A stretch of DNA of 64,000 nucleotides. It comes from Candidatus Sericytochromatia bacterium. GTDB taxonomy: Bacteria > Cyanobacteriota > Sericytochromatia > S15B-MN24 > VGJW01. The stretch lies in assembly GCA_035285595.1 (NCBI GenBank), contig JAYKGV010000061.1, forward strand, positions 6,874 to 70,873, given 5' to 3'. This document shows positions 1,624 to 32,010 of the stretch, piece by piece. How positions within the stretch are numbered: position 1 is the stretch's first letter; each line of letters begins with the position of its first letter. The notes beneath the pieces are model-generated. The model had not been told where the DNA came from. It saw nothing but the letters and a program-made list of their open reading frames with translations, and searched no databases. Made by a program: the position numbers and the translations under genes.

Positions 1624-3126
1624 TCAGGCGGGCCAGCGCCCGTAGGTTCGGGTCAATTGCCCGAGGTGGTGGGCGATGCCCTCGGTCAGGCCCGGCTGCC
1701 CCAGACGCCAGCCCCAGTTGCCCTCGGCTGCCCCGGGCAGATTCATCCTGCCTTCGTCTCCCAGCGACAAGAGGTCCTGCAGCGGCACGATGACCGTATC
1801 TGCGGGAGAACGCATGGCAAGCTCGATCAGCGCCCACGCCGGGTCGTCCACGGGCTTGCCGAGATATGCAGCCACACGCTGGCGCTCCTCCTGACTCGCC
1901 CCCTGCCACCAGCCCCGGGTGGTCGCGTTGTCGTGCGTCCCGGTGTAGACCACGCTGAGTGGGGAGTGTCGATGAGGCAAGAAATCATTGGTCGGCTTGC
2001 CATCCCAGGCGAATTGCAGGATGCGCATCCCAGGCAGGGCATTGTCATCCCGCAGGGCGGCGACGGGAGGCGTGATGACGCCCAGGTCCTCCGCAATCAG
2101 CGGCAGGTGACCGAGGTGCCCGCGCATGGCATCGAAGAACTCTTGCCCCGGGCCAGGTTGCCAAGAGCCACTTTCGGCGGTGGGGGCACCTGCCGGGACG
2201 GCCCAGTAGGCTTCGAAGCCTCTGAAGTGATCGAGCCGCAGCAAGTCGCACAACGACAGCGCATGCGCCAGCCGGCGTGCCCACCAGGTGTAGTCGTCCT
2301 CGGCCATGGCCTTCCAGTCGTACAGCGGGTTGCCCCACAGTTGCCCCGTCTTGCTGAAGTAATCGGGCGGCACTCCTGCCACCGCGGTTGGCCGGCCTTC
2401 GCGATCGAGCAGGAACATGGCTCGGTCGCGCCAGACATCGGCCGAGTCATACGCCACGAAGATCGGGATGTCCCCGACCAGCCTCACCCCGTCTACCGCC
2501 GCTCGCTGCCGCAGCGCATCCCACTGCTCGCGGAACAGGAACTGGCACAGGATGTGGAAGGCCACGTCATGGCCCAGCCGATGGCGGGCTTCGGCCAGTG
2601 CGCCGGGATCACGATCCCGCAACGGAGCAGGCCACTGGGGCCAGGGCGCACCTTGGTGAGCCGCCTTGAGAGCCATGAAGAGCGCATAGTCCTCGAGCCA
2701 ACCGGCCTGGGCGCGACCCCGGGTGAATCGCGCGAGCCGCTCCTTCAGCGCCGGATTCGCGCGTTGGTCCCAGTGGCGTTGCACCTCACGCAGCAAGGCC
2801 TGCTTGGTCTCTATGACGGGCCCGAAACGAATGCGCCCCTCGTCGAACCGAGGATAGGCTGCCAACTCTCCCTCGGTCACAAGCCCGGCTTCGGCCAGGG
2901 CCTCCGGCGAGATCAGATTGGGATTGCCCGCGAATGAGGACAGGCACTGGTAGGGGGAATCCCCGAAGCTCGTGGGGCCCAGAGGCAAAACCTGCCAAAG
3001 GGTCTGGCCCGACAGTGCCAGGAAATCCACGAAGCTGTGGGCCATGGGACCGAGATCCCCGATCCCGAAGGGACCGGGCAGGGAGGTGGGATGAAGCAAC
3101 AGGCCGCTTGAACGGGGATGACGCAT
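1624..3126 (-). CDS. malQ: 4-alpha-glucanotransferase (amylomaltase, GH77)
   Basis: Strong GH77 similarity (LLHPTSLPGPFGIGDLG..., GNPLYDW, LRLDHFRGF, YTGTHDN). Start taken at internal ATG 3124-3126 (MRHPRSSGLLLHPTSL), with GGAGG 5 nt upstream. The ORF track's 610-aa version is an N-terminal over-extension. Confidence 0.9.
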   Translation of the reverse strand: MRHPRSSGLLLHPTSLPGPFGIGDLGPMAHSFVDFLALSGQTLWQVLPLGPTSFGDSPYQCLSSFAGNPNLISPEALAEAGLVTEGELAAYPRFDEGRIRFGPVIETKQALLREVQRHWDQRANPALKERLARFTRGRAQAGWLEDYALFMALKAAHQGAPWPQWPAPLRDRDPGALAEARHRLGHDVAFHILCQFLFREQWDALRQRAAVDGVRLVGDIPIFVAYDSADVWRDRAMFLLDREGRPTAVAGVPPDYFSKTGQLWGNPLYDWKAMAEDDYTWWARRLAHALSLCDLLRLDHFRGFEAYWAVPAGAPTAESGSWQPGPGQEFFDAMRGHLGHLPLIAEDLGVITPPVAALRDDNALPGMRILQFAWDGKPTNDFLPHRHSPLSVVYTGTHDNATTRGWWQGASQEERQRVAAYLGKPVDDPAWALIELAMRSPADTVIVPLQDLLSLGDEGRMNLPGAAEGNWGWRLGQPGLTEGIAHHLGQLTRTYGRWPA

Positions 3127-3145
3127 GGTGCCTCCGGCTTTGGGT

Positions 3146-4447
3146 TCAGCGGATCGTAGCAGACGACGAGCCGTCCCGGCAGGCCCGTGCATGGACTGCG
3201 GCCGCCCGCCCCGCGAGGAACCCCGTCGACCAGGCCGCCTGCAGGTTATAGCCCCCCACATAGCCATCGACGTCGAGGATTTCACCCGCCAGATAGAGTC
3301 CCGGCACACGCCGCGAGGCCATGGTCTTCGGGTCCACCTCGCGCACGTCCACCCCGCCGGCCGTGACTTCGGCGGCCTCGAAGGAATGCCAGCCCTCGGG
3401 CCGGAAGGCCCAGCCCTTGAAGGTCTCCGCAAGGCGCCTGCGTTCCTGGCGTCCAAGCTCCGCCAGGCGGCGGTCTCCGGGCACTCCCGCGGCGTCGAGA
3501 AGGTCAGTCACCAGTGCACGTGGCACGGTCTCGGGGACCAGAGACCGCACGGTCCGTCCGCCTTCGCGCGCCATCGTCCCGAGGAGCCTCTTCAGCACGT
3601 CCTCCTGGCTCTCCCCGGGCAGCAGGTCGAACAGCAGGTCACCGGTGGTTTCCCCTTGGACCCACGAGGCAGCGAGTGCGCGACTGAGTTGCAGCACCAC
3701 CGGGCCAGAGAGACCGAAGTGCGTCCACAGCACGTCACCGTCCCACGGCACGGGCCCTGCCTGTCCGGCCAGGCGGACCCTCCCTCTGATGCCGCGCAGC
3801 GCGACCCCGGCATGGGGGGCCGTCCCCGATAGCCGCAGCGGCACGAGCGAAGGGAAGGTGGGCACGACGGTGTGGCCAAGACGCCGCAGGATCGGGTAGC
3901 CGTCACCGGTGCTGCCCGACTTGGGGAACGACCGCCCTCCGGTGCACCAGACCACGCTGCGGGTCGGCAGCACGGCTCCGCCGTCGAGCCCCAGGCCCCT
4001 CACCGAACCCGCCCCGTCCCGCAGGATGTCTCTGGCCGGAGTTTCCGTCGCCAGCGTGACGCCTGCCCGGCGCATCGCGCGGACCAATGCGTCGATCACA
4101 TCGCCAGACTTGCCGCTGTCCGGGAAGATCTTGCCATAGGGAGCCTCCACGCGGGTCGGGACACCTTCGCCATGCAGCAAATCCAGAAAAGCCCGGGGCG
4201 GGTAGCTTCTGAGCGCGTGGCGAAGAAACGGCCCGTTGCCGGGAAACATCCTTTCCCACGCGCGGAGATCGTCCAGCGCATTGGTGACATTGCATCGACC
4301 CCCGCCCGATATGCGAATCTTGGTACCGAGCTTGACGGTTTTCTCGAGCAGCAAGGTCCGAGCTCCGGCCCTGGCAGCCTCGAGTGCGGCCAGCATGCCG
4401 GCCGCGCCGCCCCCGACGACGGTCACGTCCCAGGTGTCGTTTGCCAT
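3146..4447 (-). CDS. NAD(P)/FAD-dependent oxidoreductase, HI0933/BaiN-like flavoprotein
   Basis: Rossmann motif VVGGGAAGMLAA near the N-terminus and the ISGGGRCN motif typical of the HI0933 family. Start taken at MANDTWDV (ATG 4445-4447). Confidence 0.8.
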   Translation of the reverse strand: MANDTWDVTVVGGGAAGMLAALEAARAGARTLLLEKTVKLGTKIRISGGGRCNVTNALDDLRAWERMFPGNGPFLRHALRSYPPRAFLDLLHGEGVPTRVEAPYGKIFPDSGKSGDVIDALVRAMRRAGVTLATETPARDILRDGAGSVRGLGLDGGAVLPTRSVVWCTGGRSFPKSGSTGDGYPILRRLGHTVVPTFPSLVPLRLSGTAPHAGVALRGIRGRVRLAGQAGPVPWDGDVLWTHFGLSGPVVLQLSRALAASWVQGETTGDLLFDLLPGESQEDVLKRLLGTMAREGGRTVRSLVPETVPRALVTDLLDAAGVPGDRRLAELGRQERRRLAETFKGWAFRPEGWHSFEAAEVTAGGVDVREVDPKTMASRRVPGLYLAGEILDVDGYVGGYNLQAAWSTGFLAGRAAAVHARACRDGSSSATIR

Positions 4448-19159: not shown

Positions 19160-20089
19160 ATGAGACATTCCTGGCGAGCGAATATGATGGCAGCCGCGTG
19201 CGCCGCGACGGTGCTTGGCTGCAATGTGTCCCCCGAGACGCTCCAGCAGGCGGTGCAGGAGGCGGCGACCTTGCTCAAGGATGCCGGCGTCAAGCTGGAA
19301 TTCCTGGATGCCGACGGACAGGCCGTGGTGCTGGCTGAAGAGGACATCGATGCGGTCTATCTCGACGGCAAGGAGCTGTCGGCGGCGGACTATGACGTGG
19401 TGGAGGGTGAAGTTCGCTTCAAGGGCCTCGAAGCCGACGACAGGACCCGCAAGGTCGAGATTCGCCTGAAGGATATCGAGCAGCCACTGACCACCACGCT
19501 CGTGGCGAAGGACGGGCGCCAGAAGCCCGCAGAGAACCGCTTGGCCATCGTGCAGGACAGCCTCGGTGGGGTCGTGTTCCAGCCCAACGGTGATTTGGTG
19601 AAGTTGCGCGAGGAGCAGCGCCGCAAGGACGTCCTGTCGCGGGTGACTCTGGACATACGCTACATGGGTTTGCTCAGACCACCGCTGCATGCGGGCTTTT
19701 TCACGCAGGAGGGGTCCTGGAGTCATTTCCCGCGGCCCGAGCAGCCCGCGGCGACCTGGTCCGCCAAGGTCGTGGCCTTTGATGTGCAGGTCTTCAATCT
19801 ACTGGCCCCGAAGCAGCCCCCTACCGCTTCACCCTCGGCCGATCCTGCCCGGCTGCCCGGTGCCGGCCTGTGGGTCTTGGCAGAGCGGCCCGATGGCAAG
19901 GCTGTCATCTATTCGGTCAGATTCACGAAGGCCGATGGCCTGAAGCTGTATCAGCAAGAGCCTCCGATGCCTCAGACGCTTACCTTGGCCAACCTCGCAA
20001 CCAACAGCCCCGAGGTCTTCGACAGCGTCCTTGCAGCCACAGCGGCCAAAAGGATTCGTGAGGTCCCGGCTCCGCCCCAGCCGAACTGA
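19160..20089 (+). CDS. Hypothetical lipoprotein
   Basis: Signal peptide ending in lipobox TVLGC. No recognisable domain. Confidence 0.55.
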   Translation: MRHSWRANMMAAACAATVLGCNVSPETLQQAVQEAATLLKDAGVKLEFLDADGQAVVLAEEDIDAVYLDGKELSAADYDVVEGEVRFKGLEADDRTRKVEIRLKDIEQPLTTTLVAKDGRQKPAENRLAIVQDSLGGVVFQPNGDLVKLREEQRRKDVLSRVTLDIRYMGLLRPPLHAGFFTQEGSWSHFPRPEQPAATWSAKVVAFDVQVFNLLAPKQPPTASPSADPARLPGAGLWVLAERPDGKAVIYSVRFTKADGLKLYQQEPPMPQTLTLANLATNSPEVFDSVLAATAAKRIREVPAPPQPN

Positions 20090-20166: not shown

Positions 20167-21360
20167 GTGCCCCAAGGCCGTATGATGGGGCCGATGAGAC
20201 GCTTTTCTTCTCTTGCCGTGTTGGCCGCTTTTCTGTTCCTGACCATGGCCGGCTTTGCCCTGATTATTCCTGTCCTGCCGCAGCGCGTGGCGGATATGCC
20301 GCGGCCTGATTTGGCCCCTGATGTCGCGATGGGGATTCTGATGGGGAGTTACGCGGCCGTGCAGTTCGTGATGGCTCCGTGGTGGGGGCGGGTCTCCGAC
20401 CGACGAGGGCGCAGGCCGGTGCTCCTGATTGGGGGGGTCGGCTTTGCCCTTGCTCTGGCGGGCATGGCCGCGGCCGAAACCTTTTCCATGCTGCTGGCGG
20501 CCCGGTTGGCTGGCGGCTTGATGGCCGCGGCCCTGCTGCCGGCGGCTCTTGCCGCAGTGGATGATCTGGCCGGGGAGGTCGGGAGGGGTAGAGGCATGGC
20601 TCTGGCGGGCGCTTCGCTAGGCCTTGGCTTCGTACTTGGACCGGCACTGGGGGGCTGGTTGTCGATGGGGGGGGACCTGCGTCTGCCGTTCGTGGTCGCG
20701 GCGGTCTCCTGTACCGTGGTGGTGGCCCTCGCGGCCGTCGTCCTGCCCGAGACCCGGCCTGCCGATGCCCTGCCGAGGAGCCGTAGTCTCAAGCAGGCGC
20801 TTGCGCTGTCCTGGGAGCGAGGCAGGCCCTTGTTCCTGGCCGGTCTCTTGCAAATGATGCTCTTTTCAGGCATGGAGGCCGTGCTCGGCATTCATCTGCT
20901 TGAGCGTTTCGGCATGGGGCCGGCGGCTCTGGGTGCCACCTTGGGCGTGATGGGTCTCGTGTCTGCGGCCGTTGCCGGAGGGGGGGGCGGTCGTCTCATC
21001 GAACGCTTGGGTGAGAACCAGACGCTCACCTTGGCCTTCGTTGCTTTCGCCGGGGGGTTTGCGCTCATGGCTTTCCCACTGGGCTTTCCCGGCGTGGCTG
21101 CTGGACTCTTCCTGTTGGGCGTGGGCTCGGCCCTGATGCGTCCGTCACTGTCCGCAGGCGTCGGGAGGCGCCTGCCAGGGGATGCGGGCACGGGCCTGGG
21201 AGCGCTGCAGTCCTTTGAGGCCCTCGGAAGGGCCGTTGGCCCCTTGTTGGCAGGGTTGGCCCTTCATTCGATGGGACGTGGGGCGTGGGGCATCTCGGCA
21301 CTTCTCGCTCTGGGGGGCATTGGCCTCGGACGCTGGGCCGCACGCGAAGGGGAAGCCTGA
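20167..21360 (+). CDS. MFS transporter
   Basis: About 12 predicted TM helices with the MFS-like loop motif (GRVSDRRGRRPVLL). Confidence 0.75.
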   Translation: MPQGRMMGPMRRFSSLAVLAAFLFLTMAGFALIIPVLPQRVADMPRPDLAPDVAMGILMGSYAAVQFVMAPWWGRVSDRRGRRPVLLIGGVGFALALAGMAAAETFSMLLAARLAGGLMAAALLPAALAAVDDLAGEVGRGRGMALAGASLGLGFVLGPALGGWLSMGGDLRLPFVVAAVSCTVVVALAAVVLPETRPADALPRSRSLKQALALSWERGRPLFLAGLLQMMLFSGMEAVLGIHLLERFGMGPAALGATLGVMGLVSAAVAGGGGGRLIERLGENQTLTLAFVAFAGGFALMAFPLGFPGVAAGLFLLGVGSALMRPSLSAGVGRRLPGDAGTGLGALQSFEALGRAVGPLLAGLALHSMGRGAWGISALLALGGIGLGRWAAREGEA

Positions 21361-21382: not shown

Positions 21383-22294
21383 ATGGTGCTGGTGAATCCC
21401 GCCGCCCGAAGGGGAGGGCGTCGTGGCTTGCTCGAGGACTTTCTGGCCGGCTTGGCCTTGCCAGGCGCCGTGGGTATCGTCCCGGCCAGTCGCGAGGAGG
21501 CTGTTGCCCGGATGGCCGAGGCAGGGGCAAGGGGACACGACGGCTTGATCGTACTGGCTGGGGATGGAGGACTCAACGCGGCTCTGCCTCCGGCGCTTGC
21601 GCAGAACCTGCCCCTGGCGGTCTGCCCGGCAGGAACGGCCAACGACTGGGCCCGGCACGTGGGGATGCCCCGGCATCCTTGGCAGGCGGGGGCGGCGCTG
21701 CGCTCCGGTCGTCTGGCCCGTGTCGACGTGCTCGAGGTGGAGGGGCGTCCCTTCCTGACCGGCGGAGGCCTGGGCGCCGTAGCGGCCGTGGCCGAGTCCG
21801 TGAACCAGGCCAAGGCGAGGTCCGATGCCCTCGGGGCTTTCACCCGCGCACTCGGGGCGGCTGTCTACTTGGTTCATACGGTCGGGGTCGTGCTCGGGCG
21901 TCAGGATGTGTGGTTCGACTGGACATTGACCCATGAGGACGGCACCGCGCGACAGTTCCGCAGCTTGGCGGTCTTCGTTCACAACGTGCCAACGATCGGA
22001 CACTTCGTCCGCGCCGTGCCTGCGGCCCGTCCGGACGACGGACGCATGGACCTGATGGCGCTGCTGGGAACGGGGAGGCTGGGGATCTTGCGGGATGTCG
22101 CACGGCTGAGCGCCCCGTTCGTCCCGCGCCCCTTTCCCGAGGCACTGCTCGAGGGAGGCCACGCATGGACCCTGGCCGCGGAGCGTCCTTTCGTCTTTCA
22201 CGGAGATGGCGATCCCTTGGCGGAGGGAAAGGTGATGCGCTTCGCCTCGCGGCCTGCGGCGCTTCTCGCGTGGTTGCCGGGACGGGCGGACTAG
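21383..22294 (+). CDS. Lipid kinase, diacylglycerol-kinase catalytic domain family (YegS/BmrU-like)
   Basis: DAGK_cat features (MVLVNPAARRG..., LIVLAGDGGLN). Start at ATG 21383 just after the MFS stop. The ORF-track 370-aa version overlaps the MFS gene in another frame. Confidence 0.6.
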   Translation: MVLVNPAARRGGRRGLLEDFLAGLALPGAVGIVPASREEAVARMAEAGARGHDGLIVLAGDGGLNAALPPALAQNLPLAVCPAGTANDWARHVGMPRHPWQAGAALRSGRLARVDVLEVEGRPFLTGGGLGAVAAVAESVNQAKARSDALGAFTRALGAAVYLVHTVGVVLGRQDVWFDWTLTHEDGTARQFRSLAVFVHNVPTIGHFVRAVPAARPDDGRMDLMALLGTGRLGILRDVARLSAPFVPRPFPEALLEGGHAWTLAAERPFVFHGDGDPLAEGKVMRFASRPAALLAWLPGRAD

Positions 22295-22308: not shown

Positions 22309-23562
22309 TCAGGGGTCGACACGGGCGATCTTGAAATTGGTGTAGATGAATCGGTCCTGGCGATGCAGGACGACAGCCTCGTCATCCAGCGAGGTCAGGC
22401 CCGGCAGGTCGGGCATGGGGCGCTCCAGCAGCGTATTCCACCAGCACAGGCGGGCTCCGGGACGCGCGGAGGCCGTGAGGTCCGCATGCAATGCGACCAC
22501 GTCGGTCCACGGCATCCAGTCGAAGACATTGGACAGATTGAAACGGTCGAAGGTGTCCGGATGAAAGGCATCCTGCAGTTGGCCATGGCACATCTTCAGC
22601 CTCACCAGCCGGCTGGCGAGGTGCTCCTGGTTCTCGCGCGCAAGGTAAGGCGGCAGGGCGACGTCATCCGCGGGCAGAGCTCCCTCGAGTATCAGGCGCA
22701 TGAAGAAATTCTCCCTCATGGGCAGCCCCGTCAGGATGTGTTCCGCACGGGCCCTCAGCGCGTCACCCAGAGCCCCGCCCTCCACTTGCCTGAAGTGAGC
22801 GGGATCCTTGACACGCTCCAGCACGGCTCGACTGAAGAAAGTACGGAAGAGGCCGCGCCAAAGCGCTCCTTGCCAGTGCTCTGAAAACCGGCGCGCCTGC
22901 TCGGCTGGGTCGTCAAGCGTGGCGAACTCCGCAAGGAACCTGTGCCCCAGCACGAGGCGCAGGAGCCTGCCGAAGGCAAGCAGGTAGCGTTCCAGCTTTC
23001 CCGACAGCAGAATCCCCTCTTGCAGGTCACGTCTCTGTTCGTCGAAGAACGCACGGGCATCGGGCGACAAAGCGGTGCGAATCTGCCGGTACAGGCCCAG
23101 ACGATCCCGGGCGGCACCAAAGCCGAGGAGCGCCAGCTTGTCCTCGTGCCCGAGATGGGCCAAGGCTGCCATCTTGAGTTCGAGGACGTGAAGCTGGCGG
23201 ATATTCATGTCCACCACCACGAGTTCTTCGGGATCCTCTGCCAGAAGGGCGAGGCTGTTGCAGCCTCCCGAACCCACGGAAAGGATACGCTGGCCGGGTC
23301 GGGGAGCCAGGGCCCGGAGCATGACCCGGGCATCTTCCCAGCAGTTGGCGTAGCCGATCCCCTGATGGAAGGGACGGGCGGCGATGGCGCGGTTCGGGAC
23401 AGACGCGGAGGAGGGCGAAGTCGGCTTCAAGGCATGACGGACGGGTGGACCGCCGGGGCGGCAGGGGGTATGACCAAAGGATGAGCCAGGCAACTTTGCC
23501 CCAGCATACCCGAGCTCCCGCGTGGCGGCGCTGGTGGGAGTATCAAGCGGAGCGCTTTCCAC
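22309..23562 (-). CDS. DUF3419 protein, BtaA-like SAM-dependent 3-amino-3-carboxypropyl transferase family
   Basis: IGYANCWEDARVM, the Rossmann-like VGSGGCN and LSNVFDWM are characteristic of DUF3419/BtaA N-domain. The true start is uncertain. The longest version overlaps the divergent 23481 gene, and an internal TTG near 23427 is possible. Confidence 0.65.
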   Translation of the reverse strand: MESAPLDTPTSAATRELGYAGAKLPGSSFGHTPCRPGGPPVRHALKPTSPSSASVPNRAIAARPFHQGIGYANCWEDARVMLRALAPRPGQRILSVGSGGCNSLALLAEDPEELVVVDMNIRQLHVLELKMAALAHLGHEDKLALLGFGAARDRLGLYRQIRTALSPDARAFFDEQRRDLQEGILLSGKLERYLLAFGRLLRLVLGHRFLAEFATLDDPAEQARRFSEHWQGALWRGLFRTFFSRAVLERVKDPAHFRQVEGGALGDALRARAEHILTGLPMRENFFMRLILEGALPADDVALPPYLARENQEHLASRLVRLKMCHGQLQDAFHPDTFDRFNLSNVFDWMPWTDVVALHADLTASARPGARLCWWNTLLERPMPDLPGLTSLDDEAVVLHRQDRFIYTNFKIARVDP

Positions 23563-24428
23563 TTGCCACGCATCTGGTAGGCATTCTGCTGTTTTTCGGC
23601 TTGGCGCATGGCGGAGCGGTGGCGCTGGCCACAGAAGGACCGGTCCCGGTGGGCGGCCGCACGGCCCTTGCGTTCTTCCTGACCTTTCAGGTCTTTCTGT
23701 TGCTGCGGGTCATGGACGAGTTCAAGGACTTCGCCGACGATGCGGTCAACCATCCTGAGCGGGTCGTCCAGCGCGGGGTCGTCACGCTACCGGAGCTCAA
23801 GGTCCTCGGCATCGGCATCGGTGTGTCGATGGCAATCCTTGCTCTGGCGCTGGGACGCGAGGGGGTGGTGGGTTTTGCTGCGGTGACGGCTTTTTCGGGG
23901 CTGATGCGCGTCGAGTTTTTCATCGGCCCATGGTTGCGCCAACGGGTCCTGACCTATGCTCTTCTGCACCAGGGCATCGTGCCACTGCTCTGCGTGGCCG
24001 TGGGCCGCCTGGCCGCGGGACCCGCCGGTCTCGGGGCGGAGTACCTGCTGGTGGTGGGAGTCGCGGTCGGGCTTGGCCTCGTCTTTGAACTGACACGCAA
24101 GGCGAGGGCACCGGAAGAGGAGCTTGAAACGCTTGCGACGTACACCCGGGTTCACGGCCCGTTCGGAGCTTCCTTGGCGGCTTTCGTGGCGTTGGCCCTG
24201 GCTGTCCTTGCGGCCAGCTGGTTGGCCCTGCGTCTCGCGCTGCCGGTCGGAAGCCTTGTGCTGGTCCTGCTGTCGGGATTTGCGGGTACTCTGGTTCTCG
24301 GGGTGTTCGCGGTGCGACCGTTTCCTGAAACGGCCAAGGTCGTCCGCATCATGGGCACGGTGGTGTTCGTCCTGATTCAGGCTGCATTGGTCTTGGGCTT
24401 GTGGGTGCAGCGAGGGTTTGCTTGGTGA
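23481..24428 (+). CDS. Polytopic membrane protein, possibly UbiA-superfamily prenyltransferase-like
   Basis: About 9 TM helices. Asp-rich cytoplasmic loop after TM2 (MDEFKDFADD), reminiscent of the UbiA first Asp-rich motif. The second motif is not canonical. Start at ATG 23481. Confidence 0.45.
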   Translation: MSQATLPQHTRAPAWRRWWEYQAERFPLATHLVGILLFFGLAHGGAVALATEGPVPVGGRTALAFFLTFQVFLLLRVMDEFKDFADDAVNHPERVVQRGVVTLPELKVLGIGIGVSMAILALALGREGVVGFAAVTAFSGLMRVEFFIGPWLRQRVLTYALLHQGIVPLLCVAVGRLAAGPAGLGAEYLLVVGVAVGLGLVFELTRKARAPEEELETLATYTRVHGPFGASLAAFVALALAVLAASWLALRLALPVGSLVLVLLSGFAGTLVLGVFAVRPFPETAKVVRIMGTVVFVLIQAALVLGLWVQRGFAW

Positions 24429-27106
24429 ACCGAACATCTGGACCCTCGGCGTTCGAAGCTGCTCATACGCTTGGACGGCTGTTGTTGACCGATGAGGATG
24501 CCGCCAGCGGAGAGCGCGCGCTTGCCGGGGGCAAGGCCGCACAACTGTCCGTCCTGCGCTCGATGGGATTGAGGGTGCCCGGTTGGCTGGTGTTGACGAC
24601 CCATGCCTACGAGCTGTGGCGCCTGGCGGACCAACCCGATCAAGTTCCCCGAGACCTGGCGGAAATCCTCCGGCGCGGCATGGAGGGGCGCTGGGGCGAG
24701 GCGGCGAGCACCATGAGATTCGCTGTCCGTTCCTCGGCCGCAGGCGAAGACAGTGGCTCCAGCTCCTTCGCCGGCCAGTTCCGCACGATTCTGGGTGCCC
24801 TGGGCATCGACGGTGTCCTTGCCGCCCTGCCTGGAGTATGGGGCGCCGCCGCGTCCGAAGGCGTGCTGGCTTATGCTCGCCAGCGGGGGGTGAGTCGAGA
24901 GGCCCTGCGCCTTGCGGTGGTCATTCAGGAACTCGTGGTCCCCGAGGCCAGTGGGGTCGTGTTCTCGGCACATCCGGTCACGGGGGATCGCGAGGAGGTC
25001 GTAGGACGGGTGGGCTGGGGCCTCGGCGAGGGCGTCGTGGCCGATCTGGTCCCCTCGGACGGGTTTTCGGAGCGCACCGGCGAGGTGCGTTACGAAACGG
25101 CAGACAAGGAGTCTGCCGTGGTCCTTGAGCCAAGTGGAACAACGGTGCTGGGACCCGTCGACGAGAATCGACGCCTTGTTCGCTGCCTGACCGATGCCGA
25201 GGTGCGTGAACTGGCTTGCGAAGCCCGCAGGATCGCCCGTCTGGCCGGCCATCCGCAGGACATCGAATTCGCGAGGATGGCCGACGGTTGGGTGTTCCTG
25301 CAGACCCGTCCCGTGACCACGCTTGAACCCGGCTTGCCCTCTTCCGGGAGGGCAGAGGTCCACGTGGGGACGCTCGAACGGCTGTGGGACAACTCGAACA
25401 TCGTCGAGTCTTACAACGGCGTCACGACTCCCCTGACCTTCAGCTTTGCCAGCCAGGCCTATACCATCGTCTACCAACAGATTGCCGCCTTGCTTGGGGT
25501 GCCGCCGCAGACCCTGCAGGCCAATGCGGCGACCTTCAGGAATATGATTGGCTTCCATTCGGGTCGTATTTACTACAACATGAGGAATTGGTATCGCATC
25601 GTCGCCCTGCTGCCGGGTTACGAAGCGAACAAGGCCTTCATGGAACAGATGATGGGCGTCAAGGCCACGGCGCAGGTCGGCGCGGACACGGCGCGCGCAG
25701 GCATGCTGGCCAGGTTCGGGCCGGTCCTCGTGGTGGCGGGTCGCTTGCTCTGGGCATATCTGACCATCGACCGCCGAGTCTCGGCTTTCCAGCACCACTT
25801 CAACCAGGTTTATGAGGCGTGGAGGCACAAGGATTGGGCGAGCATGCCGCCCGATGCCCTGGCCGAGGCTTACGATGAGCTCGAACGTTCCCTGTTGTGG
25901 CGTTGGCAGGCGCCCATCCTGACAGATACCTTCGCGATGGTGGCCTACGGTCTGCTCCGTCGGCTGTGTGATCGCTGGTTGCCGGGGGCGGACTCCTCCT
26001 TGCAGAACGATCTGCTCTCGGGAGAAGGTGGCATCGAATCGACCGCGCCGACGCACTGGTTGCTCCGAAAGGCCGCCGAGCTGGCTTCCCAGCCCGAGCG
26101 AGCCTCAGCGCTGCTGGCGCGGGAGGCAGCCGACGTGCCGGCATGGGTCGACCAGGGCGATCCCGTCCTGGCTTCGGAGGTGGCCGGATTCCTGGATCGA
26201 TGGGGGTTTCGGTGTATGGACGAGCTCAAACTCGAGGAGCCCACGCTCAAGGACGAGCCTTCCTTTGTGTATGCCATGTTGCAGAACTACCTCAAGCTGG
26301 CCGCCGTAGGCCGATTGCCCTCAGCCGATGCGGAATCTGACCTGCGCAAGGCGGCCGAGGCCGAAGTCCGCACGCGATTGCGCGGTCGTCCCCTGCGTGC
26401 CTGGTTGTTCTTCCGTGTGCTGGGCGAGGCTCGCAAACACGTCCGGAATCGCGAGAACCTGCGCTTCTCTCGGACGCGAATCTTCGGCGTATGCCGCGAG
26501 TTGTTCCGTGCGATGGGCACGCATATGACGGCCAGTGGCCTCCTGTCGCGGCCCGGCGACGTCTTTTACCTTACCGTTCCTGAGGTTTGGGCTTGGGCAG
26601 AGGGTCGTGCCGTGACCACGGACCTCAAGGGGCTTGCGGCCTTGCGCGCGAGGCAGTTCGAGTCCTGGAAGACCATGGAGGTGCCCGAGCGTTTCACGAC
26701 GAACGGCGTGCCTTCCCTGTCACGGAGGGACATCGCGCGGTCCGAACGGCGCGCGGGGCCTGACGACGAGGGGGTTCTGCACGGGGTCAGCTGTTGCCCC
26801 GGCAAAGTCACGGCACCGGTTCGTCTGGTGCTGCGTCCTGCCGACGCTGAGGGATTGGCCGGCCAGATCCTGACAACGGTTCGAACGGATCCCGGATGGA
26901 TCCCCCTTTATCCTGCTTCGGCTGGTTTGCTGATCGAGCGGGGCAGCATCCTCTCTCATTCGGCCATCGTGGCACGTGAGATGGGCTTGCCGGCCATCGT
27001 GGGCATTCCCGGCCTGTCCCGGGCCGTGATGGAGGGGCAGACGGTGACGATGGATGGCAGGGCCGGTACCGTGCGGCTCCGCGACCCTGCGGAATCGTGC
27101 GTATGA
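24425..27106 (+). CDS. PEP-utilising enzyme family protein (PPDK_N ATP-binding domain + C-terminal swivel phosphohistidine domain; PpsA/rifampin-phosphotransferase-like)
   Basis: N-terminal GGKAAQLSVLRSMGLRVPGWLVLTT (PPDK_N). C-terminal GSILSHSAIVAREMGLPAIVGIPG (PEP-utilisers mobile domain with catalytic His). About 890 aa. Start assumed at GTG 24425, overlapping the upstream stop (GTGA). Confidence 0.7.
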   Translation: MNRTSGPSAFEAAHTLGRLLLTDEDAASGERALAGGKAAQLSVLRSMGLRVPGWLVLTTHAYELWRLADQPDQVPRDLAEILRRGMEGRWGEAASTMRFAVRSSAAGEDSGSSSFAGQFRTILGALGIDGVLAALPGVWGAAASEGVLAYARQRGVSREALRLAVVIQELVVPEASGVVFSAHPVTGDREEVVGRVGWGLGEGVVADLVPSDGFSERTGEVRYETADKESAVVLEPSGTTVLGPVDENRRLVRCLTDAEVRELACEARRIARLAGHPQDIEFARMADGWVFLQTRPVTTLEPGLPSSGRAEVHVGTLERLWDNSNIVESYNGVTTPLTFSFASQAYTIVYQQIAALLGVPPQTLQANAATFRNMIGFHSGRIYYNMRNWYRIVALLPGYEANKAFMEQMMGVKATAQVGADTARAGMLARFGPVLVVAGRLLWAYLTIDRRVSAFQHHFNQVYEAWRHKDWASMPPDALAEAYDELERSLLWRWQAPILTDTFAMVAYGLLRRLCDRWLPGADSSLQNDLLSGEGGIESTAPTHWLLRKAAELASQPERASALLAREAADVPAWVDQGDPVLASEVAGFLDRWGFRCMDELKLEEPTLKDEPSFVYAMLQNYLKLAAVGRLPSADAESDLRKAAEAEVRTRLRGRPLRAWLFFRVLGEARKHVRNRENLRFSRTRIFGVCRELFRAMGTHMTASGLLSRPGDVFYLTVPEVWAWAEGRAVTTDLKGLAALRARQFESWKTMEVPERFTTNGVPSLSRRDIARSERRAGPDDEGVLHGVSCCPGKVTAPVRLVLRPADAEGLAGQILTTVRTDPGWIPLYPASAGLLIERGSILSHSAIVAREMGLPAIVGIPGLSRAVMEGQTVTMDGRAGTVRLRDPAESCV

Positions 27107-28161
27107 ACTCGTGGACCGGTGATGAGCCCGCTGCCCTGGAGGCCTGGGCCGAAGTGGCCGGGAGGGTCTGGCGTCATCGACCGGTCTTGCCCCCGCCTGA
27201 TCCGGGCCGCTTGGGGGCCACGCTCACGCGATTGTCCAACTGGGCCCTGCCCCGGCATTTTGCCGTTCCGGGCAAGGCAGCCTTGATGGCGTGGCATTTG
27301 CCTGACGGGGTGACGGGGCATTTGGGTGCCTTCGAGGCGATGCCTGAACCGGAAGCTGCAGGTCGAGTCTTGCAGGAGGCTCTCGCCTGGCTGCATGAGC
27401 GTGGCGCCAAGGTGGCTCTTGGCCCCATCGACGGGGATGCCTGGGAGCGTACCCGCTTCAGTCTTGGGCCGGAGGACGAGCCGGCCTTCCTGCTCGAGCC
27501 GGAGAATCCGCCGGAGTATCCCTTGTTCTGGGAGGCGGCCGGCGGGAGCATCAGTCATCGTGTGTGGACCCAGGTGCAGGAAGATCCTCGGGCCGCGGCG
27601 GAAACTCTTGCGGATCACGTACGCTCTGTGAAGGAGGCCGGGTACCGGATCGCCCCGGTGACCGGTCGTTCCTGGCGGCAAGATTTGAAGGATCTCAAGG
27701 CGCTGGTCCCCGAGGTCTTCGCCGGCGGACTGCCCCTGGCGCCCATGGCCGAGGCGGACTTCGTCGCCCGATTTGCCCCTTTCTCGCCTCTGTGGCGCAG
27801 CGGACTGTCCTTTGTGGCCCGTGACGCAGGGGGCAAGGCTGTCGGATTCCTGCTGGGCCTGCCCGATCTGCGGCCTTGGCTGGGAAGGGCGGGTGGGCTG
27901 GCGGGACGGCTGGGCCTGGCTTGGCGGATCACGCATCCTCGCCGTGCCGTCCTCAAGACCTTGGGGGTTGCCCCCGCTCATCGGCGTGTGGCCCTCGGAC
28001 ATGCGCTCGCGTACGCTTTTCATCGACGGGCGGCGGCACTTGGCGTTCCGACCGTCCTCCACGCACTGATGGCAGAGGGCAATCCCTCGCGCCATATGTC
28101 CGACAAGCTCGGGGCGAGGGTCTGTCGTTCCCACGCATTGTTCAAGTGGGACCTGCGTTGA
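27103..28161 (+). CDS. GNAT-fold (FemAB/BioF2-like) putative acyltransferase
   Basis: About 350 aa with weak GNAT-like C-terminal half (AVGFLLGLPD..., ALGHALAYAF). The ATG overlaps the upstream stop (ATGA). Assignment is tentative. Confidence 0.4.
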   Translation: MNSWTGDEPAALEAWAEVAGRVWRHRPVLPPPDPGRLGATLTRLSNWALPRHFAVPGKAALMAWHLPDGVTGHLGAFEAMPEPEAAGRVLQEALAWLHERGAKVALGPIDGDAWERTRFSLGPEDEPAFLLEPENPPEYPLFWEAAGGSISHRVWTQVQEDPRAAAETLADHVRSVKEAGYRIAPVTGRSWRQDLKDLKALVPEVFAGGLPLAPMAEADFVARFAPFSPLWRSGLSFVARDAGGKAVGFLLGLPDLRPWLGRAGGLAGRLGLAWRITHPRRAVLKTLGVAPAHRRVALGHALAYAFHRRAAALGVPTVLHALMAEGNPSRHMSDKLGARVCRSHALFKWDLR

Positions 28162-29654
28162 CGGGGAGCCTTTGCGGTATCCTGGCCGAGCATGCTCGCG
28201 AGCGGCCGCAGGCACCGGCGCTGTTCGTGCCGGTCGGCCGAGGAGGGCGGCAGCATAGGCGGGTGACCTTCGGGGAGCTGGCCGCGTCCGTGCGCCGGCG
28301 GGCGGAGTGGTTGCAGCACCGGGGCGTCAGGCCGGGTGACCGAGTCCTGCTGTTCATACCGATGTCCGAGGAACTCTATGTCTGGTTGCTCGCCTTGTGG
28401 TGGGTGGGCGGAGTGGGTGTGTTCCTGGATCCGTGGATGGGCTTTCGGGCACTTGCCGAGGCCATCGAGCGGACGAGCCCCGTGGCGATGGTCCTGCCGC
28501 CTTGGGGACGTATGCTTCGTCATGTCCTGCCTGTTTGGCGAAAGGTGCCAGCGTGCTGGCCGACCGGGGAGCCGCTGCCGGTCAGGGATTCGGTGAGTTC
28601 CCTGCCCTTTCCTGCACCCGAAGGACACCCGGCGCTCGTGACGTTCACCACGGGCAGTTCGGGCCGCCCCAAGGGCGCGGTGCGGTCCCACGGTGTCTTG
28701 CTGGCCCAACACCAGCTGCTCTCCCGGGAGCTGGGAGATGGCCCGGGGGATGTGGCGATGGCCACCCTGCCCATTTTTACCCTCCATCATCTCGCGGCCG
28801 GAGCGGCGGCCATTTTGCCTTTGCGCCATCGTCTGGCGGGTGACGAGCAGGGCGCGGCAGCTGCTTGGAGGCAGATGGCTGCCCTCGGGGCGACCTTGGT
28901 CGTCGTTTCGCCGGCGTTGCTGCGTTCGTGGTTGGAATTGAACCAGACCTTGCCGGGCTTGCGGGCCGTGTTCGTGGGAGGCGGGGGTGTCGACCCGGAG
29001 TTGCCTATTCGGGCGGCGAAGGTTTTTCCTGCTGCCCGCGTGGCCATTGGCTACGGGTCGACAGAGGCCGAACCTGTGTCCATGGCCAGAGGAGATGGCC
29101 CCAGCCACGCGGAGGCACGTGAGCGTACCCTGGCCGGCGAAGGCCTTTGCGTCGGGTGCCCGGTACCGGGGGTCGAGATCCGCTTGCGCGAAGACGGCGA
29201 GGTGCTTGTTGCCGGACCCCATGTCGTGACCGAGTATTGGGGCGTCGACGGCTTGCCCCCTGGTAAGTCCCGGGATGGGGCGGGGAACTTATGGCACGCG
29301 ATGGGCGACGTGGCCCGTCAGGACCCTGACGGATGTCTGTGGTTGCTGGGGCGGACCGGAGACCCGGTGCTCCCCCAGGGCAGCGTGCGGCACGCGCTGG
29401 CCCTCGAATCTCTCGTCACGTGCCGGGGCTGGTCGAGGGGGGCTGCGCTCGTTGCGCTGCAGGGTCGGCCTATCCTGGCCGTCGAAGGCGGGGTGGAACC
29501 GGTCTTGCGCGAGGGCTTGGCGGAGCTTGGACTCTCCGACCTTGCCGTGGTGGCGGTTCGTCGGATCCCAAGGGATCCAAGACACCGGACCAAGGTCGAT
29601 CGGGTGGCCCTGCTGCGGCAGTTGGCACGCAAAGGGTACACTTGGACCCCATGA
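28158..29654 (+). CDS. Adenylate-forming enzyme (acyl-CoA synthetase / fatty acyl-AMP ligase family)
   Basis: AMP-binding P-loop TFTTGSSGRPKGA and YGSTE motif. Start assumed at TTG 28158 overlapping the GNAT stop (TTGA). The ORF-track version extends upstream in-frame. Confidence 0.75.
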   Translation: MTGSLCGILAEHARERPQAPALFVPVGRGGRQHRRVTFGELAASVRRRAEWLQHRGVRPGDRVLLFIPMSEELYVWLLALWWVGGVGVFLDPWMGFRALAEAIERTSPVAMVLPPWGRMLRHVLPVWRKVPACWPTGEPLPVRDSVSSLPFPAPEGHPALVTFTTGSSGRPKGAVRSHGVLLAQHQLLSRELGDGPGDVAMATLPIFTLHHLAAGAAAILPLRHRLAGDEQGAAAAWRQMAALGATLVVVSPALLRSWLELNQTLPGLRAVFVGGGGVDPELPIRAAKVFPAARVAIGYGSTEAEPVSMARGDGPSHAEARERTLAGEGLCVGCPVPGVEIRLREDGEVLVAGPHVVTEYWGVDGLPPGKSRDGAGNLWHAMGDVARQDPDGCLWLLGRTGDPVLPQGSVRHALALESLVTCRGWSRGAALVALQGRPILAVEGGVEPVLREGLAELGLSDLAVVAVRRIPRDPRHRTKVDRVALLRQLARKGYTWTP

Positions 29655-30226
29655 ATGCGCTTTCTCGTTTCGGCATCCTGGCCGCGGCCCTTATGGCGGT
29701 TCCCTTCGTCGGCCTCGCGCTCGCAGGACTCCTGGGTCCCAAGGTCGTCACACGCTCCTCGGAGCGGGTCATCGAGGCTCCCCCGTCCAAGGTCTGGCTG
29801 GCCATCACCTCATGGGACCTCTGGGCCGCCAAAGGGGACCCGATGATGCCTGCTGTCGGCACCCGTTCCGTCTCGCCGGCCACCGGCAGCCCGGAGGTCA
29901 TCCGGTATGCGATTGGCGCACAGGGCCAGACCTGGGAGCAGGAGGTTGCGGCATGGGAGCCCGAGCGTGTCTATGCCTTCCGAAATCGGCCCAAGGTAGG
30001 AGCGCCCTCTGCTCCCATGTTGATGCGCTTCGATCTGGAACCTGTCGGCACGGCGTCCGTGAAGGTTCGCTTCGCAACTCGGCTGGAGCCCAAGACCTTC
30101 CTCGATCGTTCCTTCGGGGTGGTTTTCGGTCTGGGTATCGGGACCCTCGAGGGCTATCAACGCGCCTTGCTCGATGGACTGGAAGGTTGGGCCGAGGGCA
30201 AGCCGGCTTCAGGCTCCGCCAGCTGA
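29651..30226 (+). CDS. SRPBCC-fold (polyketide cyclase/START-like) protein with N-terminal hydrophobic segment
   Basis: MNALSRFGILAAALMAVPFVGLALAG TM/signal segment followed by an SRPBCC-like pattern (VIEAPPSKVWLAITSWD...). The ATG overlaps the ligase stop (ATGA). Confidence 0.55.
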   Translation: MNALSRFGILAAALMAVPFVGLALAGLLGPKVVTRSSERVIEAPPSKVWLAITSWDLWAAKGDPMMPAVGTRSVSPATGSPEVIRYAIGAQGQTWEQEVAAWEPERVYAFRNRPKVGAPSAPMLMRFDLEPVGTASVKVRFATRLEPKTFLDRSFGVVFGLGIGTLEGYQRALLDGLEGWAEGKPASGSAS

Positions 30227-30229
30227 CGC

Positions 30230-30637
30230 TCAATCGGTCGAGACCGGGCTGTCCCACGGGACGGGCCGCCCATCCGGCCCGATGGTCACGAAAATGGCCT
30301 CCGCCGTGGTGACCACGACGGGATCCGCATCACGGCCCCTGCGTCGTGCTTCGACCCTGATACCTATCGTCAGGCTTGTCCGGCCTCGATGCTCGAGCCG
30401 AGTATAGAAACTGACGGTGTCTCCCACGTGGACCGGTTGTTCGAACTTGACCTCTCGCAGGGCGACCGTCACGAAGCGATGATCCGTGTGGCGACCTGCC
30501 TCGACGGCCGCGGCGAGGTCCAAGTGGGATAGGATCACCCCCCCGAAGATCGTCCCGTGCTCGTTGGTGTCCTTGGGCAAGAGCAGGACGCGAATCGAAG
30601 GTTCCTGGGGCCAGGTGTCAGGTTGAGCGGTCAACAT
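30230..30637 (-). CDS. Hotdog-fold acyl-CoA thioesterase
   Basis: LLPKDTNEHGTIFGGVILSHLD...VHVGDTV is typical of YciA/4HBT-like thioesterases. Convergent with the SRPBCC gene; the stops are 3 nt apart. Confidence 0.75.
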   Translation of the reverse strand: MLTAQPDTWPQEPSIRVLLLPKDTNEHGTIFGGVILSHLDLAAAVEAGRHTDHRFVTVALREVKFEQPVHVGDTVSFYTRLEHRGRTSLTIGIRVEARRRGRDADPVVVTTAEAIFVTIGPDGRPVPWDSPVSTD

Positions 30638-30717: not shown

Positions 30718-32010
30718 TTGTCGAGGCGCGGCATGTATAGGCATTTCACAGGCATCGCCACGTTGCTGGCGCTCTTTGCCTGCGGTCGTCTGCCCGGCAC
30801 CCTTCCTGCCGCCGCCGGCTCTCGCACCAGTTCCGCACAGGCTGTCGAAGGGGAGGTCGTGGTGCGGCTTGCCGAAGGCGCTTCGTTGCCTGCGGGCTGG
30901 GTCGTGCGGCGCCGGATGGAGGGTCTGGGCGCCGTCGTTGCGGCTCTTCCTGGCGGCATGGGCGTGCAATCGGCCGTGGACAGCCTTGGACGACACGCTG
31001 GGGTCTTGTGGGCCGAGCCCAACGTGCGGTTCGACTTGCCTGATCCGCTGCCAGCACGTTCGATTTCCCTTCCGGGATTTTCCGTTCGTAACGAGGAGCC
31101 GAACCTCTGGCACTTTTTGCGGATCCAGACGCGGGAAGCCTGGAGTACGACCAAGGGAAGGGGCGTCCTCGTCGCGGTGGTCGACACCGGCATCGACGCG
31201 GCCCATCCCGCGTTCCTGGGCCGCGTCCTGCCGGGTTACGATTCGCTCGATCGGGACAATGATGCCCGCGATGACAACGGCCACGGCACCCACGTGGCGG
31301 GTATCATCGCTGCGCAGACGTCCGACATGACGTTGCTTGGCGTCGCTCCCGAGGCACGCATCCTTCCGGTCCGGGCGCTCGGTGATCGCGGCGGGACCGC
31401 CGAATCGGTGGCGACTGGCATCCAGTGGGCCGTCGGTCGGGGGGCGCAGGTCATCAACCTGAGTCTAGGGTCTCCGGTCCGCTCACGTCTGATCGAGGAT
31501 GCCATCCGCGGGGCCCTTGACCGAGGCGTGGTGGTGGTCGCTGCGATGGGCAACGCCGGCGACCGGGGCAATCCGCGCATATTCCCGGCCAGCTTGCCGG
31601 GGGTGGTGGCTGTGGGCGCAACGGATCCGCTCGATCGCAGGACCCCGTGGTCGTGCTTCGGTCGCTGGCAGTCGCTTTCGGCTCCGGGGTTCGGTATCTG
31701 GTCCACGTTTCCGACCTATGAGACGTCGCTCGTCCGCTTTGCCCGCGAAAATCCGGCGGCTTTTCCTCCCGAAAATCGCGTCGACACTTTTGCGGCCGCA
31801 TTGTCCGGAACGAGCCAGTCGGCCCCTGTCGTAGCGGGCATCGTCGCTTTGGTGCGCTCGGTGGCACCGGAGTTGGCACCTTCCCAGGTGAACAAGGTCT
31901 TGCAGGCCACGGCGCGCGACCTCGGTGCACCGGGCTTCGACAGTTATCATGGGCACGGGCTGGTCCAGGCGGCGTCCGCGCTCAGGACGGTACGCGCGAC
32001 CCAGCCCTGA
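30718..32010 (+). CDS. Subtilisin-like serine peptidase (S8), secreted
   Basis: Signal peptide, then catalytic triad motifs VAVVDTGID, HGTHVAGIIAA and GTSQSAPVVAG. Confidence 0.9.
   Translation: MSRRGMYRHFTGIATLLALFACGRLPGTLPAAAGSRTSSAQAVEGEVVVRLAEGASLPAGWVVRRRMEGLGAVVAALPGGMGVQSAVDSLGRHAGVLWAEPNVRFDLPDPLPARSISLPGFSVRNEEPNLWHFLRIQTREAWSTTKGRGVLVAVVDTGIDAAHPAFLGRVLPGYDSLDRDNDARDDNGHGTHVAGIIAAQTSDMTLLGVAPEARILPVRALGDRGGTAESVATGIQWAVGRGAQVINLSLGSPVRSRLIEDAIRGALDRGVVVVAAMGNAGDRGNPRIFPASLPGVVAVGATDPLDRRTPWSCFGRWQSLSAPGFGIWSTFPTYETSLVRFARENPAAFPPENRVDTFAAALSGTSQSAPVVAGIVALVRSVAPELAPSQVNKVLQATARDLGAPGFDSYHGHGLVQAASALRTVRATQP

Follow-up and report, generated by a model that had tools for sequence, protein, structure and literature searches.

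Which lipid, if any, would be made by the DUF3419 protein encoded on the minus strand of this DNA from a Candidatus Sericytochromatia bacterium (contig JAYKGV010000061.1; the window, that is, the whole stretch of 64,000 nucleotides analyzed)? The DUF3419 domain is used as a marker of the capacity to make the betaine lipid diacylglyceryl-trimethylhomoserine (DGTS; e.g., PMC6642084), and BtaA performs the S-adenosylmethionine (SAM)-dependent transfer of a 3-amino-3-carboxypropyl group to a lipid hydroxyl, that of diacylglycerol (PMC10685587). Judging from sequence comparison, the window protein is a real relative of BtaA placed on a separate, uncharacterized branch, outside the clade formed by the btaA-btaB pairs. 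Moreover, a functional link ties its gene to the operon next to it and, for two lineages, to a DAGK_cat kinase as well. We give roughly even chances to the proposal that the gene encodes a BtaA-family SAM-dependent transferase belonging to a cluster for an amino-acid-headed membrane lipid, which would not be DGTS.

A branch of the DUF3419 family beside BtaA

The open reading frame (ORF) at 22309–23562 of the minus strand was confirmed, having 417 codons with GTG as the first one, and its residues 64–377 match the Pfam family DUF3419 (PF11899) with an E-value of 7.2e-61 and 206.9 bits (cut-off 28.2). The window protein is, by this profile, a member of the DUF3419/BtaA superfamily, as an earlier note written from the DNA letters had stated, and the common SAM-binding motifs are intact. 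Gene calls on three independent metagenome contigs give this same protein, and database entries 100% identical to it and to the GNAT-like protein of the window are found. The SAM motif I GSGGCN (S54, G56, and N58) and D74 show little or no variation both in BtaA and in the proteins encoded in the conserved cluster described below (cluster-type). In the AlphaFold2 model of the protein (predicted local distance difference test score, pLDDT, 92.3; predicted template modeling score 0.91), this region corresponds to strands 48–52 and 69–74 of a Rossmann core that bears a helical insertion of ~200 amino acids, and the modeled core is of the class I SAM-transferase type. A search of PDB sequences with the DUF3419 profile gave no meaningful match (one chance match, E 0.64), and Foldseek against the PDB returned weak, generic class I methyltransferase matches only (E ≥ 2e-3, template modeling score ≤ 0.33). 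In NCBIfam, which has no BtaA model, nothing specific was matched by the window protein or by true BtaA proteins.

The likeness to the BtaA proteins of Rhodobacter, Sinorhizobium, and Agrobacterium extends along the whole protein; the lengths are similar, all belong to one Pfam family, and they probably share a lipid context. The residues common to the window protein and btaB-linked BtaA are Y27, W31-E32-D33, GSGGCN, D74, G144, N241, P260, D359, and Y363, among which are the Y..WED motif and motif I, the acidic residue that follows strand 2, and the C-terminal pair D..Y. However, the identity to BtaA is 26–27%, against 33–47% to the more distant cluster-type proteins and 64–65% to the nearest Sericytochromatia relatives, and the motifs on the putative acceptor side differ: the C-terminal one is FNLSNVFDW in the window protein and YVLLDAQDW in BtaA, the second WWN against FRT, and the third GKLERY against GLLGRF. 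All three patterns of the cluster-type clade (FNLS[ND][IV]F[ED][YW], [YW]WN, and GK[FL]ERY) are present in the window protein. A neighbor-joining tree of 115 sequences, which is a rough test, also groups it with the cluster-type proteins and not with the btaB-linked BtaA of Rhizobiaceae and Chondrinema.

The gene set differs as well. Sinorhizobium (L088 and L093) and Chondrinema (L090) yielded true btaA-btaB pairs, with btaB following btaA in all three, whereas the window gene is without btaB and its clade has other partners, to which it is sometimes fused. No btaB was found beside DUF3419 at 80 related loci, and a tblastn search with two BtaB proteins (E ≤ 1e-3) found no BtaB-like methyltransferase in the 64 kb of the window. 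Because no BtaB is present, DGTS is unlikely to be the product, which agrees with what the earlier note had argued from the immediate neighbors. A further comparison is offered by BTA1 of algae and fungi, where BtaA and BtaB domains are fused: fusions of the PEMT/ICMT::DUF3419 type in the present clade likewise join a head-group-installing domain to a SAM-dependent methyltransferase, although in this case the methyltransferase is an integral-membrane PEMT/ICMT and not of the soluble BtaB type, and the window protein itself is unfused. The literature search gave work on BtaA and BTA1 and incidental mentions of DUF3419; no paper describing the DUF3419 cluster treated below was found.

Two records among these loci merit a comment. 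That of L088 (CP090106.1, Sinorhizobium meliloti Ak57, 2878–4127) is labeled plasmid pSymB, yet it is 3.7 Mb long and carries the btaA-btaB locus, which we take to be chromosomal in S. meliloti; its btaA is split into two overlapping frames (frameshift or sequencing error) and is missing from the PLSDB gene table. A third DUF3419 context is seen in L092 (CP041205.1, Rhizobium plasmid pMK-2, 1871–8209), with the order ketoacyl-acyl carrier protein synthase III, oxidoreductase, metallo-beta-lactamase-type (MBL) hydrolase, 'CoF synthetase', DUF3419, and a hypothetical gene; in the tree, this DUF3419 falls closer to the BtaA side.

The DUF3419 gene cluster across phyla

An exhaustive phmmer search with the DUF3419 protein gave 2536 cluster representatives (50% identity) at E ≤ 1e-3, 351 of them at E ≤ 1e-30. 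Relatives were located in at least 566 stretches of species-representative genomes, and the best 80 loci, from about 20 phyla, were used to study gene context by tblastn and de novo ORF clustering, the full-flank set being the 38 loci flanked on each side by 8 kb or more. The canonical operon contains, in this order, genes for a hydroxymethylglutaryl-CoA (HMG-CoA)-reductase-like protein, a UbiA-like protein, a dikinase resembling phosphoenolpyruvate (PEP) synthase, DUF3419, a membrane protein (C4), a GNAT-like protein, and an AMP-binding ligase (AMP-ligase). Among the full-flank loci, the dikinase-like partner is present in 37 of the 38, the UbiA-like in 36, the AMP-ligase in 33, C4 in 27, the GNAT-like in 25, and the reductase-like in 23; all six occur together at 19 loci, and a single locus has no partner. 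The earlier note had tied the window gene to the lipid-like operon next to it, and this proposal holds well beyond the window, with the same partners at 33–37 of the 38 loci in many phyla. Two strains in culture also carry the complete cluster, namely Brevibacillus laterosporus B9 (NZ_CP011076.1, at about 460.5–477.5 kb) and, on plasmid NZ_CP121116.1, Roseinatronobacter sp. S2. MMPL-type exporters adjoin DUF3419 in eight loci and in L096, and in several lineages they follow DUF3419 or the ligase.

In the window, the UbiA-like and dikinase genes (23481–27106) and the GNAT-like and AMP-ligase genes (27103–29654) form the cluster. HMG-CoA-reductase-like and C4 genes, which the cluster has in most phyla, gave no match across the whole 64 kb of the window, which therefore holds a reduced variant of the seven-gene form. 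Loci of Sericytochromatia and Caldilineaceae, like some of Planctomycetota and Myxococcota, also lack both. Where the position was compared, the C4 gene came immediately after DUF3419 in 52 of 58 loci, and it varies together with the reductase (both at 23 loci, neither at 11, C4 only at four, and the reductase only at none). Most C4 proteins have no Pfam match, while 6 of 27 members weakly match CTP_transf_1, the CdsA/dolichol-kinase/phytol-kinase family (best E 1.8e-5); the C4 profile gave no meaningful match in the PDB. In the phytol salvage of plants and cyanobacteria, the VTE5 kinase (CTP_transf_1 family) and VTE6 act before UbiA-family transferases, and the canonical cluster resembles this pathway in that it, too, combines a UbiA-family transferase with a CTP_transf_1-like membrane protein and another phosphotransfer enzyme. 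However, in the cluster this other enzyme is a dikinase of the PEP-synthase type, nothing points to phytol, and the window has no CTP_transf_1-like gene.

Regarding the reductase, the HMG-CoA-reductase-like protein (L071 5235–6518 and orthologues) reaches 302 bits on TIGR00533, for which the equivalog cut-off is 442, and occurs also in Brevibacillus, presumably a genus with the methylerythritol phosphate pathway. Because of this score and this occurrence, the protein may reduce another thioester. In a metagenome-assembled genome (MAG) of Desulfobacterales (L014 6084–14917), two dikinase-like paralogues flank the UbiA-like and DUF3419 genes, and an extra gene of ~985 amino acids (cluster C11) is common to this locus, L015, and L023.

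The earlier note had also related the gene to the neighboring DAGK_cat kinase. As a general rule this link does not stand, since DAGK_cat lies near DUF3419 in 5 of the 80 loci, all of the Sericytochromatia lineage (adjacent in L008, L009, L012, and L013), and the cyanobacterium Pantanalinema has the same divergent layout without DAGK_cat. The association nevertheless recurs independently in a second type of operon, from a Bacteroidota-type lineage, where DAGK_cat, PEMT::DUF3419, a 370-residue GNAT-like homologue, and an ornithine/diaminopimelate/arginine decarboxylase are co-directional. For example, DAGK_cat adjoins DUF3419 independently in L097 and L100, and the GNAT-like homologue follows PEMT::DUF3419 in L097 and L099, the 370-residue protein matching the GNAT-like protein of the window at E 3.7e-17. 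The DAGK_cat/DUF3419/GNAT-like triad of the window thus recurs in a second phylum, with no UbiA-like or dikinase gene. The contig with the PEMT-fusion operon carries proteins with type IX secretion system tails.

Natural fusions of DUF3419 were also found among the top phmmer matches, namely DUF3419::GNAT (three cases, P0225, P0235, and P0278), PEMT/ICMT::DUF3419 (three cases), HMG-CoA_red::DUF3419, dikinase::DUF3419 (P0254), and MFS_1::DUF3419 (P0184), and all of them score higher to cluster-type references than to BtaA. A variant context is seen in a marine metagenome (L101 8001–15891), where an MFS::DUF3419 gene lies beside those of a 704-residue dikinase-like protein, an 838-residue aminotransferase-containing protein, a P450, and a sulfotransferase.

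Proposed function and alternatives

In the proposed synthesis of an amino-acid-headed lipid, the DUF3419 protein would move the 3-amino-3-carboxypropyl group of SAM onto the hydroxyl of a membrane lipid, as BtaA does. The acceptor would be diacylglycerol-like, or else an anchor from the UbiA-like/dikinase pair, which might either make an anchor of the prenyl type or activate an alcohol. The result would be an ether-linked alpha-amino-acid head group, then tailored by the neighboring enzymes: the GNAT-like protein would N-acylate its amine and the AMP-ligase (with the reductase in other genomes) would act on its carboxyl, while the DAGK_cat kinase would act on the same lipid-alcohol pool and the MFS protein (MMPL elsewhere) would move the product. 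The recurrent partners fit such a head group, the GNAT-like protein and the PEMT-type methyltransferase on the alpha-amino side, and the AMP-ligase, thioester reductase, amino-acid decarboxylase, and ICMT-type methyltransferase on the alpha-carboxyl side, with lipid kinases and exporters making up the rest. This pattern of tailoring enzymes is what the installation of an aminocarboxypropyl group by DUF3419 would lead one to expect. More tentatively, the cluster could represent an undescribed pathway, present in ~20 phyla, for a new class of membrane lipid having an anchor made or activated by the UbiA-family transferase and the dikinase and an aminocarboxypropyl ether head group, with N-acylation, methylation, decarboxylation, or reduction depending on the lineage, and export by MMPL or MFS proteins.

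Several points weigh against this proposal. The transfer of aminocarboxypropyl rather than methyl is deduced from family membership and context, and the roles given to the UbiA-like protein, dikinase, ligase, and kinase are speculative. The putative acceptor-side residues differ from those of BtaA, so the acceptor may not be diacylglycerol, and in a genome without reductase and C4 the pathway may differ from the canonical one. Also, DAGK_cat is convergent with DUF3419 here and not co-transcribed with it, and other lineages without C4 have no DAGK_cat. Finally, the fusions come from gene calls on metagenomes, and errors of assembly or calling could account for a few of them.

One alternative is an ordinary BtaA that makes diacylglyceryl-homoserine from diacylglycerol as a phosphorus-free membrane lipid, methylated by an unlinked enzyme or not at all, with an adjacent operon that is unrelated. 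Membership of the same Pfam family and the conserved motifs, with a GSGGCN identical to that of BtaA, are as expected for such an enzyme; the D-W of the C-terminal motif is retained in the Sericytochromatia subclade, a diacylglycerol-type kinase adjoins the gene, and several relatives are named as BtaA enzymes by the Joint Genome Institute. We nonetheless regard this as quite improbable: the low identity and the position outside the btaA-btaB clade argue against it, as does the lack of BtaB both in the window and beside the 80 relatives, and neighbors so widely kept, and even fused to DUF3419, cannot be called unrelated. Somewhat apart stands the possibility of a methyltransferase acting on an isoprenoid or small-molecule product of the UbiA-like, dikinase, and ligase genes, in which case the cluster would make a prenylated secondary metabolite or cofactor. 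The structural neighbors in the PDB are all class I methyltransferases, the window offers a UbiA-family partner and an AMP-ligase together with a 4HBT thioesterase and a protein of the SRPBCC 'polyketide cyclase' fold, and the dikinase family includes condensing enzymes of the PigC/RedH type. However, those structural matches are weak and reflect the shared Rossmann core only, the characterized DUF3419 enzymes all transfer aminocarboxypropyl, and a spread over ~20 phyla that includes Chlamydiota-like and Omnitrophota MAGs would be unusual for a specialized metabolite. Moreover, the PEMT-type fusion, the linkage to a decarboxylase, and the lipid-type MMPL/MFS transporters better suit an amino-acid head group on a lipid, and we consider a methyltransferase of this kind unlikely.

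It can also be asked whether DAGK_cat is a functional stand-in for the missing C4, both phosphorylating the same lipid alcohol. C4 in most loci occupies the position immediately 3' of DUF3419 and weakly resembles the CdsA/dolichol-kinase/phytol-kinase family. Neither the window nor any Sericytochromatia locus has it, and in these loci DAGK_cat sits at the stop-codon side of DUF3419; moreover, the PEMT-fusion operon has DAGK_cat beside DUF3419 without C4. On the other hand, eight other full-flank loci without C4 have no DAGK_cat within 10 kb, the reductase with which C4 co-varies is not replaced in the window, and C4 could be a cytidylyltransferase and not a kinase, which leaves the substitution a possible but doubtful one.

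The large sister clade (351 clusters at 50% identity, E ≤ 1e-30) sits in a conserved and uncharacterized gene cluster different from that of BtaA, and the automatic inference of betaine lipids from a DUF3419 domain is therefore unsafe. If the proposed chemistry is true, an unrecognized amino-acid-headed lipid would exist in many environmentally abundant phyla, including Bacteroidota, Verrucomicrobiota, Planctomycetota, Gemmatimonadota, Acidobacteriota, and the non-photosynthetic relatives of cyanobacteria. With the two cultured carriers, B. laterosporus B9 and Roseinatronobacter sp. S2, the hypothesis can be tested directly.

Start codon, divergent spacer, and neighboring genes

The longest DUF3419 ORF overlaps the divergent UbiA-like gene, which starts at ATG 23481, by 82 bp. 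The earlier note had given this overlap as about 80 bp and had offered an internal TTG near 23427 as an alternative start. Its measure of the overlap was right for the longest ORF, and the internal start is the likelier one, so the overlap itself is an artefact of choosing the longest frame. An in-frame TTG lies at 23430–23428, and when it is taken as the start, exactly 13 residues precede 'RAIA', as in the 374-residue relatives P0003 and P0004 (64–65% identity); the conserved 'RAIA.RPFH' is thus preceded by a stretch of equal length in the three proteins. In the DNA alignment, the relatives begin at ATG codons that lie no more than a few bases from 23430, and in the protein alignment no homologue has residues matching the extension encoded by 23431–23562. 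TTG 23430 is then most likely the start, judging from these alignments. GTG 23562 and TTG 23493 were ruled out as starts since the extension is missing from homologues, and ATG 23322, the start chosen by the gene caller (P0001, 337 amino acids), since it would delete the conserved N-terminal motif RPFH..IGYANCWED, the first residue of which is number 63 in the long ORF. The public gene call P0001 is, in consequence, truncated.

The divergent spacer that results contains blocks (e.g., TCATCC.TT.GTCATACCC and GGTCCACCC) that are identical in four relatives whose proteins are only ~65% identical, and this identity suggests a shared regulatory element; a promoter scan around the spacer found no sigma-70 consensus. 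The features are collected in the table.

Positions of the DUF3419 gene, the divergent spacer, and neighboring genes in the window
Feature	Positions	Strand	Description
MFS transporter	20185–21360	+	upstream of the kinase gene, same strand; Pfam MFS_1 1e-54
DAGK_cat/YegS_C soluble lipid kinase	21383–22294	+	convergent with DUF3419; Pfam 6.7e-16 and 1.4e-8
DUF3419 (BtaA-family) coding sequence, predicted SAM-dependent transferase	22309–23430	-	373 amino acids from the proposed TTG start 23430; Pfam PF11899
5' part of the longest ORF	23431–23562	-	probably untranslated in the DUF3419 frame; 50-bp spacer plus, in antisense, the initial 82 bp of the UbiA-like gene
Divergent intergenic spacer	23431–23480		50 bp, DUF3419 start to UbiA-like start; blocks identical in four relatives
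UbiA-superfamily membrane protein	23481–24428	+	divergent; 315 amino acids from ATG 23481; NCBIfam PRK05951 E 4e-20
PEP-synthase/rifampicin-phosphotransferase-like dikinase	24425–27106	+	893 amino acids; Pfam PPDK_N 4.6e-49, PEP-utilizers 4.5e-20
GNAT-like protein	27103–28161	+	352 amino acids; Pfam Acetyltransf_1 6.6e-5; acyl-CoA N-acyltransferase fold in the C-terminal half
AMP-binding acyl-CoA/acyl-AMP ligase	28158–29654	+	498 amino acids; Pfam AMP-binding 5e-48; NCBIfam PRK09274 9.5e-76
SRPBCC/Polyketide_cyc2 protein	29651–30226	+	lipid-binding START-like fold; last operon gene; Pfam 2.4e-8
4HBT-family thioesterase	30230–30637	-	Pfam 4HBT 6e-14

The UbiA-like protein is conserved from 'QHTRAPAWRRWW' on, which fits its ATG, its relatives being 310 and 315 amino acids long. 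It keeps the first Asp-rich motif, DEFKDxxxD, while the second is replaced by ExxRKxR; its orthologue in L071 matches Pfam UbiA at 1.4e-13. The dikinase combines a PPDK_N ATP-grasp domain with a C-terminal swivel His domain (His motif GSILSHSAIVAREMGLP). Rifampicin phosphotransferase and PigC/RedH, which are PEP-synthase-like enzymes without the pyruvate-binding domain, have the same domain order as the window dikinase, which keeps the swivel His, and Rph_4th is recorded for orthologues of the latter. However, the window dikinase is closest to the uncharacterized NCBIfam model NF004881, at 780 bits and below the cut-off of 883. For the GNAT-like protein, the profile gave weak matches in the PDB to Naa10 and to phosphinothricin and diaminobutyrate (DABA) N-acetyltransferases; its structure model, built with only three retrievable homologues, was discarded (pLDDT 46).

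On the other side of the gene, the convergent arrangement of the DAGK_cat kinase and the MFS pump with DUF3419, as first described in the earlier note, is confirmed by Pfam and by the gene layout, the stop codons of DAGK_cat and DUF3419 being 14 bp apart. The SRPBCC, 4HBT, and MFS neighbors were found at none of 80 distant loci and are lineage-specific. A defense-system reading of the region was rejected, PADLOC giving just a weak methyltransferase-motif match (mad2, 9.8e-5). The gene at 19184–20089, upstream of the MFS gene, was considered as a hidden BtaB and discarded, as its methyltransferase matches are sub-threshold (E 0.003), the BtaB tblastn is negative, and its N-terminus is lipoprotein-like. 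The 301-residue protein that it encodes is conserved only in close relatives, and its N-terminal '...VLGC' resembles a lipobox by eye. Finally, a subtilase (Peptidase_S8) at 30733–32010 shows a fairly strong match to the mycosins of type VII secretion, of 242 bits against a cut-off of 279, in a genome that is non-actinobacterial.

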